From IMG/VR virus record IMGVR_UViG_2563366831_000007: 10,409 nt of DNA; one strand, written 5' to 3'. Of the stretch, positions 96-8,719 are shown piece after piece. A program made the translations under genes and the position numbers. The stretch's first letter is position 1; each line of letters begins with the position of its first letter. A model generated the notes under the pieces. That model saw only the letters and a list, made by a program, of their open reading frames with translations. It did not search any database and was not told the DNA's origin. The DNA is from a virus. Taxonomy: Duplodnaviria; Heunggongvirae; Uroviricota; Caudoviricetes.

Positions 96-121
96 GTAAG
101 CGACTCGTCAGAACCGTATTG
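96..121. repeat. IS66-family terminal inverted repeat (tnpC-proximal end)
   Basis: Begins GTAAGCG, the characteristic IS66-family terminus. About 18/26 match to the reverse complement of 2769-2794. Confidence 0.65.
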
Positions 122-125
122 ATAT

Positions 126-1697
126 TTACTGAGAGCTCAGATCAACTTTCCAGGGCAACAGATCGCGTACCCGGTTTGCCGGCCAGTCCTGGATATGTTC
201 AATGACGTAACGCAGCCACTTTTCTGGCTCCACATTGTTCAGACGGCATGTGCCGATCAGCGAGTACAACACCGCCGCATGTTCACCACCGCTGTCGGAA
301 CCCGCGAACATCCAGTTTTTCCGGCCTACGGCCACTCCCCGTAAGGCGTTCTCTGCGATGTTGTTGTCGATTTCCACCCAGCCATTACTGCAGTACACGT
401 TCAGTGCATCCCACTGTTTCAGCAGGTATGCGAACGCTTTTGCCGTATCTGAGTGACGCGACAGTGTTTTCATCTGTTGCTGTATCCAGTCATACAGTGA
501 CTGCATCAGTGGCGCGGCTCTGGCTTTTCTTGCCGCCAGACGCTGTTCTGCTGAACAGCCCCGGACCTCTGCCTCGATGGCATACAGTTCACCGATACGC
601 TGCAGGGCTTCCGTGGTGATGTAGGTGGGCGCTCTTGCATGCACATCGTGGATTTTTCTCCGGGCATGAGCCATACACGCGGCTTCCGTTATTCTGCCGG
701 ATTCGTATAACGCCCGGTAACCACCGTAAGCATCGGCCTGAAGCACACCGCTGTAACCGGCCAGGTGATTTTGTGGATGGATACCTTTCCGGTCCGGACT
801 GTACGCGAACCAGACCGCCGGGGGCATCTGTGAACCGGCGTTACGGTCATCACGGACGTAGACCCACAGCCGGGCTGTCCGGGTTTTACCGCTGCCCGGC
901 TCCTGGACCGGGACGGGGATATCATCAGCATGGACTTTACCGGGCATCAGCACATACTGGCGCAGGACGTCATACAGCGGCTCCAGCAGTTCAGCAACAG
1001 CACCTGTCCAGCGCCCCAGTGTGGCACGGCTCAGCTCCACTCCCTGACGACGGTATATTTCTGACTGGCGGTATAACGGCAGATGGTCTGCATATTTCCC
1101 GGTGACAACATGGGCCAGAAGCCCCGCTCCGGCATAACTGCGTGCAATGGGTTTTGAAGGTACTGGTGCCTGCACGATATGGTCGCACCGGCAACAGGCC
1201 TGTTTCGGACGTTGTGTTTCGATAACCTTAAAGGCGCTGCTGATAAGCTCCAGTTGCTCTGACACATCACATCCCAGAGAACTGAGTTCACCACCACAGG
1301 CAGGACAGCATTCCTCTTCCGGCCGGATAACCCGGGTTTCACGGGGAAGTGAGGCCGGTAACGGTTTACGGGCTGAAGACTGGCGCAGGGCGGATGGCAG
1401 TACCGGGTCATATTGCTCACCCAGCGTTTCCGCCATTTCTTCCTGAAGTGCGCTGATTCGCTCCTGTGCTTCCTGTATCTGCCGTTCGGTTTTTGCACGA
1501 AGTTTTTCTGAGCTTTTACCGAACTGCATACGTTGCAGTTTCGCAACCAGCGCCTTCAGCCGGTTGATTTCGGAAGCATAAGCCGCCACCCGCTGTGAGA
1601 GCAGGCGGTTGTATTCAGCCATCTGGCGGATGGTGTCCTGTTGCGTCTGCAACAGTGCCCGCAGGCGGGCGTTCTCATGAGCAAGTGAGGTGTCCAT
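126..1697 (-). CDS. tnpC: IS66-family transposase TnpC (523 aa)
   Basis: Full-length ORF with an N-terminal coiled-coil-like region (QLRAL..., [12 protein letters not shown]), a Cys cluster (CPACGG...CCRCDH, zinc-ribbon-like) and a large C-terminal catalytic region. It is the third gene of the tnpA-tnpB-tnpC arrangement. Confidence 0.9.
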
Positions 1698-1716
1698 ATC
1701 CTCACTTTACAACGGG

Positions 1717-2064
1717 TTATATGCGGATTCCAGCGCGTTCCGTTCGTTTCGGGTGCTTCCAGTTGATACCTTCAAGAAGCATGGATAACTGAGCCGGAGT
1801 AAGGTGCACCTTGCCGTCACGGGTGACTGGCCAGACGAAGCGGCCCCGCTCCAGGCGTTTGGTGAAGAGGCACAGTCCGTCACTGTCAGCCCACAACACT
1901 TTTATCTGGTCACCCCGGCGTCCGCGGAAGATGAACAGGTGTCCGGAGAACGGGTCATCCTTCAGGACGTTCTGAACTTTTGATGCCAGGCCGTTAAAGC
2001 CATTTCGCATATCGGTGATACCTGCAACCAGCCAGATACGCGAACCTGCAGGGAGAGATATCAT
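1717..2064 (-). CDS. tnpB: IS66-family accessory protein TnpB (Orf2), 115 aa
   Basis: Contains the conserved IS66 Orf2 motif IWLVAGITDMRNGFNGLA...FIFRGRRGDQIKVLW...DGLCLFTKRLERGRFVWP. Its start codon overlaps the tnpA stop (ATGA at 2062-2066). Confidence 0.9.
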   Translation of the reverse strand: MISLPAGSRIWLVAGITDMRNGFNGLASKVQNVLKDDPFSGHLFIFRGRRGDQIKVLWADSDGLCLFTKRLERGRFVWPVTRDGKVHLTPAQLSMLLEGINWKHPKRTERAGIRI

Positions 2065-2741
2065 CAGTGGCTGCTCCCTTTTATTTCGCGGATAAGTGTC
2101 TGTAATAACGCCGGCGTCAGTTTACCTTTAAGCCTGAGAGTTCCGGCCGGCAGAACCAGCTCACAACACAGACTGTCGGACGGTGTATTTATCTGCTCTG
2201 GTTCCTGTGCGGGGGCCGGGATTTTATTATCCGGCTCCGGCGTTAACGTCACGGGAAGCAGTGCCGGCATATTTTTTCCGGAAGGCAGCAGGCCACCTTT
2301 CCGGTATTGATGGCGCCAGTTGAAGAGCAGGTTATCGTTGATTCCGTTTTCCCGGGCGATCTGCGCCACACAGGCTCCGGGCTGCAGTGACTGCTCCACT
2401 AAGGCGATTTTAAACTCATAAGGGAAGTTGGGCCGCCGGGGACGTTTTTTTACCACGGGGGCTTCGGATATAACGGTGCTTTCAGGACGTACGACTGGTA
2501 CCGTGGAAAATTGTCCGTAAAGGCAGGCATCAAGTTCCTGCTCCGACATGCCTGCGGGCAAAGGCCACGAAAGGCCAGCTCTCCGAAAGCGCACGAACAT
2601 ACTACAAACTGTTGATTTTGGTACACCCAGGCGACGCCCGGCCACAACCCGGGGTAAATGTTCTTCAAAGTGAAGACGTAAAGCTTCAGTGATCCAGGTC
2701 CGGTGTTTCATACGATAGTGTCCATTAAAAATGATGGACAT
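2064..2741 (-). CDS. tnpA: IS66-family TnpA (Orf1), 225 aa as drawn; true start uncertain
   Basis: The C-terminal half (PNFPYEFKIALVEQSLQPGACVAQIARENGINDNLLFNWRHQYRKG) is the HTH-like IS66 Orf1 signature. In-frame ATGs at 2741 and 2711 both lack an obvious SD. The product is longer than the ~130 aa I recall for typical IS66 Orf1. Confidence 0.7.
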   Translation of the reverse strand: MSIIFNGHYRMKHRTWITEALRLHFEEHLPRVVAGRRLGVPKSTVCSMFVRFRRAGLSWPLPAGMSEQELDACLYGQFSTVPVVRPESTVISEAPVVKKRPRRPNFPYEFKIALVEQSLQPGACVAQIARENGINDNLLFNWRHQYRKGGLLPSGKNMPALLPVTLTPEPDNKIPAPAQEPEQINTPSDSLCCELVLPAGTLRLKGKLTPALLQTLIREIKGSSH

Positions 2742-2768
2742 TATTTTTGTAGAGCCGGAGGAAACAGA

Positions 2769-2794
2769 CCAGACGGTTTAAATGAGCCGGTTAC
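2769..2794. repeat. IS66-family terminal inverted repeat (tnpA-proximal end)
   Basis: The reverse complement begins GTAACCGG and matches the 96-121 terminus at about 18/26 positions. It is followed immediately by the TSD copy. Confidence 0.65.
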
Positions 2795-2802
2795 AAATGG
2801 AT
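2795..2802. repeat. Target-site duplication, right copy (AAATGGAT)
   Basis: Exact copy of 88-95, abutting the IS terminus. Confidence 0.8.
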
Positions 2803-2931
2803 TGATGAAAATTAAAACTACACAGGTGAGCTCAGACGATTGGAGGGAGTTGGGGACACTCAGAATCCTGTAGAATGAAATAAACCGGTCTATCCGTCCA
2901 TTACCCTTTTAGCTGCGCTGTATCGTCGCCG

Positions 2932-2996
2932 TATTCCCGCATTAACCATGACCGTAGCCCGACGGGGAATTCCTTCTGCGTGAGTGTGCGGGAATA
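2932..2996. repeat. Perfect 10-bp inverted repeat pair (TATTCCCGCA ... TGCGGGAATA) with a 45-bp spacer
   Basis: 2932-2941 is the exact reverse complement of 2987-2996. It lies in the non-coding region upstream of the lipoprotein gene. Confidence 0.6.
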
Positions 2997-3046
2997 ATTA
3001 AAAACGATGCACACCGGGTTTTTACCGCGTTAATGATTCGCGGATT

Positions 3047-3121
3047 TATCCCGGTGCGATGGTGGAAGAAACCGGAAGCTGTATTACAGAAAGTGCTACT
3101 ACTGTATCCCGATGCGATGTA
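3047..3121. repeat. Direct repeat of a TATCCCG-containing 16-mer (TATCCCGGTGCGATGG / TATCCCGATGCGATGT)
   Basis: Two copies at 3047-3062 and 3106-3121 match at 14/16 positions. They share the TAT(T)CCCG core with the inverted repeat at 2932/2987. Confidence 0.55.
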
Positions 3122-3213
3122 TGTAATGTGAGTCAGATAATGGCACAGGATGTGGTGATGTGGCAGTCTGGAACACAGGATATATTGTCAGAATAAGACC
3201 CGTAGGAATAAAA

Positions 3214-3540
3214 ATGAAAAGACGCCTTTTACTACTTTTTCTGTTATCTGTCCTAGCAGTGGGATGCTCGCAGCAAAAAGCTGATGAGCCCCGGCAATTA
3301 GTGACGGTGTATCCACGATATCCGGAATATGCTGCAGCAAATTATATCAAGGGGCTGGTTGAGGTTAAGTTCGATATTGGTGCTGATGGGACTGTGACAC
3401 GGATCGTTTTTCTCCGCTCAGAGCCTCATAATTTGTTTCGTGATGAAGTGGTGAAGGCCATGGCGAAATGGCGATTTGAAAAGAATCGTCCCTGTCAGGG
3501 AGTGAAGAGACAATTTATCTTTACGCCGTCACGTCCCTGA
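3214..3540 (+). CDS. Small lipoprotein consisting of a TonB C-terminal-like domain (about 108 aa precursor)
   Basis: ATG at 3214 with AGGA 6 nt upstream; the track ORF begins at an upstream GTG (3160), which I consider less likely. The N-terminus MKRRLLLLFLLSVLAVG-C is a lipoprotein signal peptide with a lipobox, and Ser at +2 suggests outer-membrane sorting. The mature part aligns with E. coli TonB residues ~150-225 as recalled (YPxxAxxxxIxGxVxVKFDxxxDGxVxxxxxLxSxPxNxFxxEVxxAMxxWRxE), roughly 40% identity over ~70 aa. There is no TM anchor or Pro-rich spacer. Confidence 0.8.
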   Translation: MKRRLLLLFLLSVLAVGCSQQKADEPRQLVTVYPRYPEYAAANYIKGLVEVKFDIGADGTVTRIVFLRSEPHNLFRDEVVKAMAKWRFEKNRPCQGVKRQFIFTPSRP

Positions 3541-3569
3541 TGCTTCCAGGTAGAGAGGGGCTGGAAGCA
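3541..3569 (+). other. Stem-loop (9-bp stem TGCTTCCAG/CTGGAAGCA, 11-nt loop) directly after the lipoprotein stop codon
   Basis: Perfect inverted repeat starting at the first base after the TGA. No T-tract follows, so it is not a canonical intrinsic terminator. Confidence 0.5.
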
Positions 3570-3632
3570 GGAGAAAAATGAAAGAGCCAGCGGTTATATT
3601 TTTGTCATGGCTGACGAGGAATGATGGAAGAA

Positions 3633-3680
3633 GGCGTTGTATGCCACACAACGCCTCACTGTTCATTTCTTCTTTTTCTC
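3633..3680 (+). terminator. Candidate rho-independent terminator for the lipoprotein transcript
   Basis: 8-bp perfect stem GGCGTTGT/ACAACGCC (3633-3640, 3648-3655) with a 7-nt loop, followed by the T-rich run TCACTGTTCATTTCTTCTTTTTCTC. Confidence 0.5.
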
Positions 3681-3842
3681 TAGTGGAACCCGATGAATAA
3701 GAGTTGCACTGGTTTCCGATGAGATGGCGATATACTCGGGCAAAGTATGCTGGCAGTTTTCCAACTGGTCAAAAATACCTGCTCTCGTCTGTTGCAATGC
3801 CTGCAGCATGCGGCGGCAATGCGCCTTGCTTTTGCTAACCAT
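3663..3842 (-). CDS. Hypothetical small protein (59 aa), low confidence
   Basis: ATG at 3842..3840 preceded by a strong SD-like GAGGAAGGAAAG. Predicted sequence MVSKSKAHCRRMLQALQQTRAGIFDQLENCQHTLPEYIAISSETSATLIHRVPLEKKKK. The poly-Lys tail coincides with the plus-strand terminator T-tract, which weakens the call. The longer 117-aa version from 4016 has no SD. Confidence 0.35.
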   Translation of the reverse strand: MVSKSKAHCRRMLQALQQTRAGIFDQLENCQHTLPEYIAISSETSATLIHRVPLEKKKK

Positions 3843-3903
3843 CTTTCCTTCCTCTATCAGTCGCTGCGTGAACTCATCATGGAATACCAGGTAAATGCGG
3901 ATG

Positions 3904-4155
3904 TTATCGGTTTTGGCTACGCAGCATAGTACAAAACGGACAGGTGCATCCCGGGACGGGGGAGGCGTCACATGTCCCTGTGATGGTTGTTCCGGGTAAT
4001 GCACTGTGTGGGGCATAAAAATGTCCGATAATTTTACTTTCTACCGCAGTTAGTTGATTCGTTGGTCCTGGTAGCACATTGGGCGAGGATTTAAATGCCA
4101 GGCAACTGAAGGATGATGTTGCAAGGGAGATAGCGAGAATATTTCTGATTTTCAT
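3904..4155 (-). CDS. Hypothetical small secreted Cys-rich protein (83 aa precursor), low confidence
   Basis: ATG at 4155..4153 with GAGG 9 nt upstream. The N-terminus MKIRNILAISLATSSFSCLA looks like a signal peptide, and the C-terminus carries a Cys cluster (TGTCDASPVPGCTCPFC). No family recognised. The ORF-track version (106 aa from 4224) has an unlikely N-terminal extension. Confidence 0.35.
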   Translation of the reverse strand: MKIRNILAISLATSSFSCLAFKSSPNVLPGPTNQLTAVESKIIGHFYAPHSALPGTTITGTCDASPVPGCTCPFCTMLRSQNR

Positions 4156-4269
4156 TTGATGATGCCTCTGTGTGAAATGACGGTAAACGACGCACTTGTG
4201 CCGGCACATAATAGCAAGCACCATAATAGATCAGATTCGATTCTTGCTGTAAGTGATAATTATTCTCGT

Positions 4270-4304
4270 TTTTCGGGTCCTTTCCGGCGATCCAACAGGC
4301 TACG
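4270..4304 (+). promoter_or_regulatory. cosQ-containing region immediately upstream of cosN (approximate)
   Basis: The sequence ...GGTCCTTTCCGGCGATCCAACAGGCTACG directly precedes the cohesive-end sequence and resembles the lambda right-end sequence as I recall it. Exact cosQ limits are not determinable here. Confidence 0.5.
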
Positions 4305-4316
4305 GGGCGGCGACCT
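4305..4316 (+). promoter_or_regulatory. cosN cohesive-end sequence GGGCGGCGACCT (terminase nicking site)
   Basis: Exact match to the 12-nt lambda cohesive end. The following CGCGGGTTTTCGCTATTTATGAAAATTTTCCGG (4317-4349) matches the lambda left end as recalled. It sits 188 nt upstream of the nu1 start, against 190 in lambda. Confidence 0.9.
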
Positions 4317-4349
4317 CGCGGGTTTTCGCTATTTATGAAAATTTTCCGG

Positions 4350-4470
4350 GGAAAATCATGTCGGTACTTCTCGAACATAACTATTTGTTTTTTCTAATAT
4401 CGAATCCGTAAAAGGTCCGACATGAAAACGCCTAAAAAAGTCATTTTCGGGCACTTTCATGTCGGCCCCT
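4350..4470 (+). promoter_or_regulatory. cosB with three non-lambda R elements (R3 4352-4364 direct, R2 4417-4429 inverted, R1 4453-4465 direct) and a candidate IHF site near 4378-4390
   Basis: Three copies of (T)TTCATGTCGG are arranged direct-inverted-direct like lambda R3-R2-R1, but the repeat sequence differs from the lambda R consensus (CGTTTCC-type). The AT-rich spacer contains rc AAACAAATAGTTA, one mismatch from the IHF consensus WATCAANNNNTTR. Confidence 0.65.
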
Positions 4471-4492
4471 GTATTTATTGTGAGACTGTTTC

Positions 4493-5012
4493 ATGAAGGT
4501 TAATAAAAAGAAACTTGCCGAAATTTTCAACGTGGATCCGCGAACGATTGAACGCTGGCAGTCTCAGGGACTCCCTTGCGTCTCCGGAGGTGGTAAGGGC
4601 GTTGAATCTGTATTTGATACCGCCATGGCAATTCAGTGGTATGCGCAGAGGGAAGCTGATATCGAAAATGAAAAACTCCGTAAAGAGGTTGTGGATTACA
4701 GGGCTGCCAGTGAGGCAGATCTCCAGCCTGGGACTATTGAGTACGAACGCCATCGACTTACGCGTGCGCAGGCCGACGCACAGGAGCTGAAGAATGCCAG
4801 AGACTCCGCAGAGGTGGTGGAAACCGCATTCTGTACTTTCGTGCTGTCACGGATCGCAGGTGAAATTGCCAGTATTCTTGACGGGATCCCTCTCTCGGTA
4901 CAGCGGCGTTTTCCGGAACTGGAAAACCGACATGTTGATTTCCTGAAACGGGATATCATCAAAGCCATGAACAAAGCAGCCGCGCTGGATGAACTGATAC
5001 CGGGGTTGCTGA

Positions 5013-5038
<26 letters not shown>
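4493..5038 (+). CDS. nu1: Terminase small subunit (gpNu1-like), 181 aa, with a non-lambda N-terminal DNA-binding domain
   Basis: Same length as lambda Nu1. From about residue 66 onward ([60 protein letters not shown]...) it is near-identical to lambda Nu1 as recalled. The first ~65 aa ([36 protein letters not shown]...) diverge. It overlaps A by 26 nt, as in lambda. Confidence 0.9.

Positions 5039-8719
<3,681 letters not shown>

Follow-up and report, generated by a model that had tools for sequence, protein, structure and literature searches.

A predicted phage lipoprotein built on a stand-alone TonB C-terminal domain: a candidate decoy of the TonB system in the cargo slot of lambdoid phages

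The lipoproteins Llp of phage T5 and Cor of phages phi80, HK022, N15 and mEp167 act on FhuA from the periplasmic side, where they close the receptor to phages, colicin M and ferrichrome. The cor gene is located beside tail-fibre genes, and llp is an early gene. Inhibition of TonB itself has a laboratory precedent (Howard et al. 2001, J Bacteriol 183:5885, cited in PMC9841981): the TonB-dependent import of iron is inhibited when periplasmic TonB fragments without the anchor are over-produced. The present study concerns a gene found in a DNA stretch of 10,409 nucleotides (the window), which is IMG/VR record IMGVR_UViG_2563366831_000007 from a virus of the class Caudoviricetes. This gene, here called the TonB_C gene, encodes a small predicted lipoprotein that consists of little more than the C-terminal domain of TonB. 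Unlike cor and llp, it lies between the lysis genes and cos. The first-pass annotation of the window had proposed that such a protein would compete with genuine TonB, and the dominant-negative effect of a periplasmic TonB domain which it mentioned is indeed on record in the work by Howard et al. as cited above.

The assignment of about 90 amino acids of the product to the TonB C-terminal domain is upheld by profile and structure comparisons. The Pfam profile PF03544 (TonB_C) matched with E=7e-13 and 49.2 bits against a gathering cut-off of 24.6, and the NCBIfam profile TIGR01352 (tonB_Cterm) with 47.4 bits against a cut-off of 27.1. The equivalogs of full-length TonB (NCBIfam PRK10819) gave at best 69.2 bits, far short of the cut-off (315 bits), with matches confined to the C-terminal third of the profile. 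When the PDB sequences were searched with phmmer, the top matches were all chains of the E. coli TonB C-terminal domain (1u07, 2gsk_B and 2grx_C, E of about 1e-14). Two of these best matches, 2GSK_B and 2GRX_C, are TonB crystallised with BtuB and with FhuA, respectively. Residues 23–103 of the window protein align without gaps to residues 150–230 of TonB (offset +127), with about 40% identity. The AlphaFold2 model, which was built with 19 family sequences, reached a predicted local distance difference test (pLDDT) score of 95–98 across residues 30–105. It shows the alpha/beta fold of the TonB C-terminal domain, with a three-stranded sheet packed against two helices. In a Foldseek search of the PDB the model matched 1u07_A with a root-mean-square deviation of 0.8 Å over 81 columns. 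The deviation from 1U07, 2GSK_B and 2GRX_C was 0.8–1.3 Å, with template modelling scores of 0.91–0.92 for 2gsk_B and 2grx_C; this agreement is to be read with the caveat that the training of AlphaFold included TonB structures. TolA domain III and HasB appeared only far down the list of the fold search.

The residues that mark TonB are largely retained. The segment P34-R35-Y36-P37 corresponds to P161-Q162-Y163-P164 of TonB, with the YP motif kept, and F53, F75, W86, F88 and F103 occupy the places of the TonB aromatics F180, F202, W213, Y215 and F230. In the family alignments the YP motif and the aromatic core positions are invariant or nearly so. Strand 94–103 is the equivalent of β3 of TonB, the strand that pairs with the Ton box. 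According to Josts et al. (2019, PMC6699858), the parallel pairing of β3 with the Ton box rests predominantly on backbone hydrogen bonds, and this also holds for the complexes with FhuA and with BtuB. Divergence of side chains therefore need not abolish Ton-box binding. The chain of the window protein stops five residues past F103 with the Pro-rich tail TPSRP and has no counterpart of the TonB C-terminal residues 236–239. These residues are presumably disordered in the transporter complexes, and their absence may leave the β3 edge free.

At the N-terminus (MKRRLLLLFLLSVLAVG), the basic n-region K2 R3 R4 is followed by an uncharged hydrophobic core (L5–V16), and the motif L-A-V-G precedes Cys18. 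The lipobox was judged by reading the sequence directly against the PROSITE PS51257 rule. This rule, [LVI..][AST..][GAS]-Cys within the first 15–35 residues together with a basic n-region and a hydrophobic core, fits the window protein. The lipobox LAVG-C and the serine at position +2 had been pointed out in the first-pass annotation, and both can be read directly from the sequence. The residue after Cys18 is Ser19, and the protein hence has no Asp retention signal. According to the Lol rule of E. coli, Ser rather than Asp at position +2 leads to outer-membrane sorting, and the protein is for this reason predicted to reach the outer membrane. In the alignments the lipobox Cys is invariant across the alleles and across relatives of 38–85% identity, while the remainder of the signal peptide diverges. 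The residues between Cys18 and the folded domain number only about ten; in the model the pLDDT falls below 50 at residues 16–21, and the first strand begins at residue 28. The N-terminal transmembrane anchor and the proline-rich spacer of TonB are absent, as had been stated from the first reading, the whole protein being only 108 amino acids long with a lipobox signal at its N-terminus. The comparisons thus confirm, at the level of sequence, a stand-alone TonB docking domain with a lipobox export signal that lacks the anchor and the rod of TonB.

The gene was not recognised as a named phage gene in the first-pass annotation. It has indeed no gene name, but it is annotated already in phage 21, in CP-933N and in RefSeq. 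The window protein is 100% identical to CPT_21_73 of phage 21, for which the curated annotation gives "TonB C-terminal domain protein", and to RefSeq WP_000830178.1, "TonB family protein"; the family is also catalogued as phrog_1267. The databases do recognise the gene, and its sighting is not new. The novelty lies in the architecture and in the function that it suggests: a TonB docking domain, by prediction re-anchored to the outer membrane, that occupies a fixed cargo slot in temperate phages of diverse kinds, is under strong purifying selection and is very common in E. coli. The label "Rz-like spanin" carried by phrog_1267 looks like an annotation error that could propagate; the lipobox is the sole spanin feature.

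A 601-bp region containing the gene was found at ≥95% identity (type 1) in 1225 of 5426 complete E. coli genomes, roughly a quarter, and the rows listed were annotated as "TonB family protein". A second allele (type 2), whose protein is 72% identical, is present in a further 415 of the 5426 genomes and in Shiga toxin (Stx) 1a-converting phages. Relatives are encoded by 177 IMG/VR viral contigs. The two alleles differ with dN=0.18 and dS=1.5 (omega of about 0.12). The most constrained part between them is the TonB_C domain; the signal peptide diverges, with the Cys and the lipobox kept. Judged from these substitution rates, purifying selection on the TonB_C gene is strong. The TonB C-terminal-domain fold is essentially unrepresented in the viral structure library BFVD, although the prophage gene is common; a search of this library with the model gave no match at E≤1e-3.

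The position of the gene is conserved as well. In a survey of related prophages, genes with 32–72% protein identity sat in the same slot, after the lysis cassette and ahead of the small terminase gene with all of them on one strand, in four phage backbones. These backbones are phage 21, the Stx-type phage JLK-2012, the Klebsiella phage ST13-OXA48phi12.4 (41%) and a Rahnella inusitata prophage (32%, lipobox LSAC). The copies in the Klebsiella phage and in the Rahnella prophage follow holin, endolysin and spanin genes, and the head modules differ.

Close relatives are not confined to phages. An exhaustive HMMER search returned 2795 matches at E≤1e-3, and many of the top ones are single-domain proteins of about 110 amino acids that match from residue 1. 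Some fifteen of these relatives have lipoboxes, and others have ordinary signal peptides. The chromosome of Raoultella ornithinolytica encodes one such lipoprotein, whose identity is 45–50% to the proteins of the E. coli phages and 56% to that of the Klebsiella phage. Its gene neighbours are lacZ, lacI, a DUF1440 gene and a gene for a glycine-zipper protein, and phage genes are absent from the vicinity. Two relatives with 36–38% identity are located between cellulose-synthesis (bcs) operons beside Tle1-like or PLD-like lipase genes, and a secreted non-lipoprotein relative in Erwinia is chromosomal. The small lipoproteins form a group of their own in a distance tree, away from genuine TonB C-terminal domains of enterobacteria, and within this group members from phages are intermixed with those from chromosomes. 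Because lipoproteins of 36–50% identity sit in chromosomal non-phage loci, the family did not originate in phages by truncation of tonB, and its native role may differ. The phage gene thus belongs to a family of stand-alone TonB_C envelope proteins that is uncharacterised, and it is not a recent truncation of the host tonB. The scan of genome contigs used one narrow pattern and returned 3 loci, and the distribution outside E. coli is under-sampled.

Two features of these chromosomal neighbourhoods may be recorded. The bcs-linked relatives (locus L014, 7001–9034; locus L016, 1697–4214) lie directly upstream of the Tle1-like gene, which resembles type VI secretion system lipases, or of the PLD-like gene. 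The DUF1440 gene that adjoins the Raoultella lipoprotein gene (locus L098, 8738–9301) is also found in the Klebsiella phage (locus L004, 2232–2858), about 3 kb upstream of the TonB_C gene; this co-occurrence may be a coincidence or may reflect a co-transferred pair.

We propose that the protein acts as a decoy or inhibitor of the TonB system by mimicking TonB, and we assign a probability of about 0.4 to this mechanism. The TonB docking domain would be held at the periplasmic face of the outer membrane by its tether of about ten residues. Because the inner-membrane anchor and the proline-rich rod are absent, it would neither couple to ExbB-ExbD nor transmit force. By one route, it would occupy the Ton boxes of ligand-loaded transporters (FhuA, BtuB, FepA, Cir and others) through β-strand augmentation on the β3 edge, and it would perhaps also cap the Ton boxes of group B colicins. 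By the other route, it would form heterodimers with the C-terminal domain of the host TonB, which is scarce, and so trap it. Under both routes the proton-motive force would no longer drive transport across the outer membrane. Phages that depend on TonB, namely those of the T1 and phi80 type, would be expected to be excluded and the cell to be protected from TonB-dependent colicins and microcins, while the uptake of siderophores and vitamin B12 would suffer. TonB is much scarcer than its transporters, as Higgs and colleagues reportedly found in 2002, so that trapping TonB would require far less protein than capping every Ton box, and the trapping route in our view deserves weight. The anchor-less laboratory fragments are said to have inhibited phi80 infection and colicin M killing too, and their authors reportedly weighed two causes, competition at the transporter and the formation of mixed dimers with TonB that do not function. 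We are somewhat more hesitant about the wider proposition that the protein constitutes a mechanistically new phage envelope defence, in which all TonB-dependent transporters are uncoupled and the cell becomes refractory to TonB-dependent phages, group B colicins, microcins and sideromycins.

A number of points weigh against TonB mimicry. Tyr33 replaces Q160 of TonB and Tyr39 replaces R166; Q160 is the site of Ton-box suppressor mutations, and R166 contacts the FhuA plug. According to the model, the fold and the exposed-edge strand needed for β-augmentation are present, and the differences from TonB do not decide Ton-box binding. The smallest TonB fragment with inhibitory activity in the work by Howard et al. 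reportedly comprised 118 amino acids (residues 122–239), which is longer than the mature protein of about 90 amino acids. Transporters greatly outnumber TonB, and a Ton-box decoy would consequently need to be abundant. A general block of TonB would be costly to lysogens and to pathogenic carrier strains that depend on siderophores. Relatives also exist at non-phage chromosomal loci, where constitutive self-inhibition of TonB makes little sense. The PADLOC defence models gave no match for the lipoprotein, and a full-text literature search found no functional study or phenotype report on its gene.

The expression signals belong among these points. Scans of positions 2700–4550 revealed neither a sigma-70 promoter on the + strand (at least 9 of 12 positions) nor a canonical terminator, a result which leaves room for weak or activator-dependent promoters. 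The best match to a Fur box upstream of the gene covered 11 of 19 positions, no better than shuffled sequence, and regulation by iron and Fur was rejected on this ground. In every phage examined the TonB_C gene is on the late-operon strand just past the lysis genes, and + strand genes between Rz and cos of lambdoid phages are read by the Q-modified polymerase. Since the gene has this location and no recognisable promoter of its own, the protein is probably made at least during lytic growth, at a late stage. Prophage-mediated exclusion would in addition need expression in the lysogen, which does not follow from the late-strand location.

The DNA in front of the gene is conserved together with it. 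About 300 bp upstream (2916–3213 in the window, 4674–5000 in locus L011) are shared by the phage-21-type and the Stx-type (JLK-2012) loci, and the farther flanks are unrelated. The comparison indicates that the TonB_C gene travels as a unit with about 300 bp of upstream DNA and recurs in unrelated flanks. Inspection of the conserved block by eye revealed only −10-like sequences (AATAAT/GATAAT) with a poor −35. The number of promoter-like matches in the region was no higher than in shuffled sequence, and the best of them lies antisense inside the TonB_C gene (3368–3341, − strand; TTAACC, 16 nt, TATAAT with an upstream TG; 10 of 12 positions). The 45-codon open reading frame (ORF) of this stretch was considered as a partner gene and rejected, as the type 2 locus has only a diverged version of it with about 21 codons. 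Because the DNA is conserved but the 45-codon ORF is not conserved as a protein, the alignments suggest a regulatory RNA or DNA element here rather than a gene.

The architecture had been described in the first-pass annotation as that of a classic moron, AT-richer than the flanking head genes and with its own stem-loops. The GC content of 0.45–0.47 across positions 3000–3600, against 0.52–0.65 in the head genes, bears out the AT-richness. The description as a classic moron with its own stem-loops holds in part: placement as cargo, AT-richness and a hairpin immediately after the stop codon speak for it, but the hairpin has no U-tract, and the scans found no promoter or canonical terminator.

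Several other functions can be considered for the protein. It might be a periplasm-facing binding module whose role is unrelated to blocking TonB, drawn from an Enterobacterales family of TonB_C lipoproteins of about 110 amino acids and carried by the phage as cargo, with another β-strand ligand, peptidoglycan or an incoming periplasmic toxin (in an immunity-like function) as examples of what it could bind. This fits the distance tree, in which the small lipoproteins stand apart from genuine TonB domains with phage and chromosomal members interleaved. It also fits the Raoultella copy, which is found among housekeeping genes and shares 56% identity with the copy of the Klebsiella phage, the two relatives beside lipase-like genes in the bcs locus, and the chromosomal secreted non-lipoproteins in Erwinia. 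Moreover, the TonB_C fold occurs in FusB (ferredoxin) and in TolA domain III (phage g3p or colicins), both lower in the fold search. We nevertheless hold an unrelated role to be somewhat less likely than TonB mimicry, as the closest solved proteins by sequence and by structure are E. coli TonB, and the signature residues of TonB are kept. Near-orthologous TonB_C genes have two different lipase-like neighbours, which argues against a specific toxin-immunity pairing, and no result points to an alternative ligand. The protein might also be an exclusion lipoprotein of the Llp/Cor type. It would then lock one particular transporter from the periplasmic face, perhaps the receptor of a competing phage or of its own phage, instead of competing for Ton boxes in general. 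The predicted topology and the size class are those of Llp and Cor, which inactivate FhuA periplasmically and thereby block every FhuA ligand, and a specific block would be far cheaper to the lysogen than a global one. Specificity could come from secondary contacts between TonB and its transporters beyond the Ton box, which vary by transporter (PMC6699858). The fold of the window protein is, however, entirely unlike Llp and Cor, and no family link was found in Pfam or PHROGs, which makes such a receptor lock improbable. The cor genes are situated beside tail-fibre genes and not at the lysis–cos junction, and no cor gene is seen there in the phage 21 annotation. The J protein of phage 21 is 83% identical to lambda J with a diverged C-terminal receptor-binding part, and the receptor is not inferable from it.

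Two further explanations arise from existing annotations. The full-length match to phrog_1267 (category lysis, E=5e-43), the predicted outer-membrane lipoprotein nature shared with o-spanins and a location that in four phage types directly follows co-oriented holin, endolysin and spanin genes might suggest a lysis accessory or spanin-like protein. We consider this very unlikely. The C-terminus (...RQFIFTPSRP) has no hydrophobic or transmembrane segment and hence is not that of a unimolecular u-spanin, and the globular TonB_C domain is not a short Pro-rich o-spanin. Phage 21 already has an annotated i-spanin and o-spanin (Rz/Rz1) upstream, chromosomal homologues are found outside any lysis context, and the PHROG label is an inherited annotation. 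The EDL933 annotation "partial tonB-like membrane protein" and the "TonB fragment" of one phage record imply a non-functional piece of a captured tonB gene. This explanation is effectively refuted by selection and synteny. The protein is only about 40% identical to E. coli TonB, has a dedicated lipoprotein signal that TonB lacks and belongs to a distinct clade; purifying selection is strong, and synteny is kept at 32–72% identity. Both annotations were dismissed, the gene being selected and not debris.

The coordinates of the features are collected in Table 1. Window positions 2795–4304 are 98.9% identical to the right end of the lambdoid phage 21 (OL657228), and positions 1–95 match the 95 bp directly preceding that segment in phage 21. 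The gene order in phage 21 is S, R, Rz/Rz1, bor (on the opposite strand), the 45-codon ORF, the TonB_C gene, two small ORFs, cosQ and cos. The bor-to-cos position given in the first-pass annotation is therefore correct by homology, but bor itself is not present within the window, and an IS66-family insertion sequence lies between the TonB_C module on one side and bor with the lysis genes on the other. This element, with Pfam matches to DDE_Tnp_IS66 and TnpB_IS66, is flanked by the 8-bp target duplication AAATGGAT at 88–95 and 2795–2802. By comparison with phage 21, it was inserted 62 bp ahead of where the bor start codon would lie, a site that probably belongs to the promoter region of bor. 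The insertion junction was found in none of the 5426 complete E. coli genomes searched.

Table 1. Positions in the window of the TonB_C gene, its parts and the surrounding features
Feature	Position	Strand	Remarks
IS66-family insertion sequence	96..2794	−	2699 bp; tnpA 2064–2741, tnpB 1717–2064, tnpC 126–1697
Upstream non-coding block	2916..3075	+	conserved between phage-21-type and Stx-phage-type loci; candidate regulatory region; no convincing sigma-70 promoter
45-codon ORF	3059..3196	+	phage 21 CPT_21_72; doubtful gene; no family match
Shine-Dalgarno sequence AGGA	3204..3207	+	6 nt before ATG; kept in the 72%-identity allele
TonB_C lipoprotein coding sequence (stop codon included)	3214..3540	+	108 amino acids; ATG start; identical to phage 21 CPT_21_73 and RefSeq WP_000830178.1
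Predicted lipoprotein signal peptide (residues 1–17, MKRRLLLLFLLSVLAVG) and lipid-modified Cys18	3214..3267	+	sequence reading; Cys/lipobox kept across alleles
Short tether from lipid anchor to folded domain (residues 19–28, SQQKADEPRQ)	3268..3297	+	low model confidence
TonB C-terminal-domain fold (residues 26–105)	3289..3528	+	aligns without gaps to E. coli TonB 153–232; profiles and model
Secondary structure of the fold			from the model: strand 28–30, helix 38–42, strands 47–55 and 61–70, helix 76–83, strand 94–103
G+C-rich hairpin (9 bp) immediately after the stop codon	3541..3569	+	−16.7 kcal/mol; no U-tract; not kept in the type 2 locus
Approximate cos region	4293..4316	.	phage 21 right end at 4304, left end at 4305; boundary between cargo and head genes

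Between the TonB_C gene and cos (3578–4378) only small ORFs without Pfam matches were found. A 60-codon ORF at 3747–3929 (+) matches phrog_3744, of unknown function, and is annotated both by the Prokaryotic Genome Annotation Pipeline (PGAP) and in phage 21. The overlapping minus-strand ORFs 3663–4016, 3904–4224 and 4091–4378 have no family support. Downstream of cos follow the genes Nu1 (4493–5038), A (5013–6938), W, the portal gene, an S49 protease/scaffold gene and D. The cos site marks a mosaic joint: the left side has the 98.9% identity to phage 21 given above, whereas the cos/Nu1 region to the right (4305–4798) is only about 84% identical, and the comparison of the window with phage 21 reported no similarity downstream of 4798. 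Elsewhere in phage 21 (OL657228, 21967–25416), sitABCD, which encodes a TonB-independent Fe2+/Mn2+ ABC importer, is found as minus-strand cargo after the side tail fibre genes. A general link of the TonB_C gene with sitABCD, which might offset the cost of a TonB block, was rejected, as a prophage with an identical TonB_C and iss module (locus L013, strain elppa6) has no sit genes.

If the decoy mechanism is true, temperate phages would have a broad-spectrum means of shutting the TonB gateway from inside, with a logic unlike that of the receptor-specific Llp and Cor. Carriers of the gene include the textbook phage 21 and Shiga-toxin phages. The gene may then influence which phages, colicins and microcins act on clinical and gut strains, the iron economy during infection and the efficacy of sideromycins ("Trojan horse" compounds) and siderophore-conjugated antibiotics, as well as the interpretation of the neighbouring iss/bor virulence marker. 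Being present in about a quarter of sequenced E. coli, it would also enter unseen into the host range in phage therapy and into bacteriocin ecology. For TonB researchers the protein would offer a natural, evolved competitive inhibitor of the interaction between TonB and the Ton box. If the decoy mechanism is wrong, there is still a widespread, conserved and uncharacterised envelope lipoprotein family with a well-defined fold.

Among the known proteins, the other stand-alone TonB_C proteins of Enterobacterales (RefSeq "TonB family protein", about 110 amino acids) share the architecture and the clade of the window protein. Some of them are not phage-borne, and they have no described function, so that no mechanism follows from this comparison. 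Like lambda Bor and Iss, the window protein is predicted to be outer-membrane lipoprotein cargo in the variable slot between Rz and cos, and bor/iss is the neighbour of the TonB_C gene in many E. coli prophages as it is in phage 21. The bor gene is transcribed in lysogens from its own promoter on the opposite strand, whereas the TonB_C gene is on the late strand, the scan detected no promoter for it, and the folds of the two proteins are unrelated. Llp and Cor are a precedent for the predicted topology, since exclusion by a lipid-anchored outer-membrane protein that acts on the transporter from its periplasmic side is proven for them. They are, however, specific for FhuA, remodel its plug and loops and are unrelated in fold and sequence; a mimic of TonB, by contrast, should affect many transporters. 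With the fragments of Howard et al. (cited in PMC9841981), the window protein shares an anchor-less TonB periplasmic domain that is sent to the periplasm by a foreign signal sequence. Those fragments were soluble and over-expressed and reportedly at least 118 amino acids long, whereas the window protein is natural, phage-borne, 40% identical to TonB, about 90 amino acids long when mature and, by prediction, lipid-anchored. The E. coli TonB C-terminal domain (about residues 150–239; 1U07, 1XX3, 2GSK chain B and 2GRX chain C) has the same fold as the window protein, with about 40% identity, the YP motif, the aromatics and β3 in common. In place of the transmembrane anchor and Pro-rich spacer of TonB, the window protein has a lipobox that would anchor this domain to the opposite, outer membrane.

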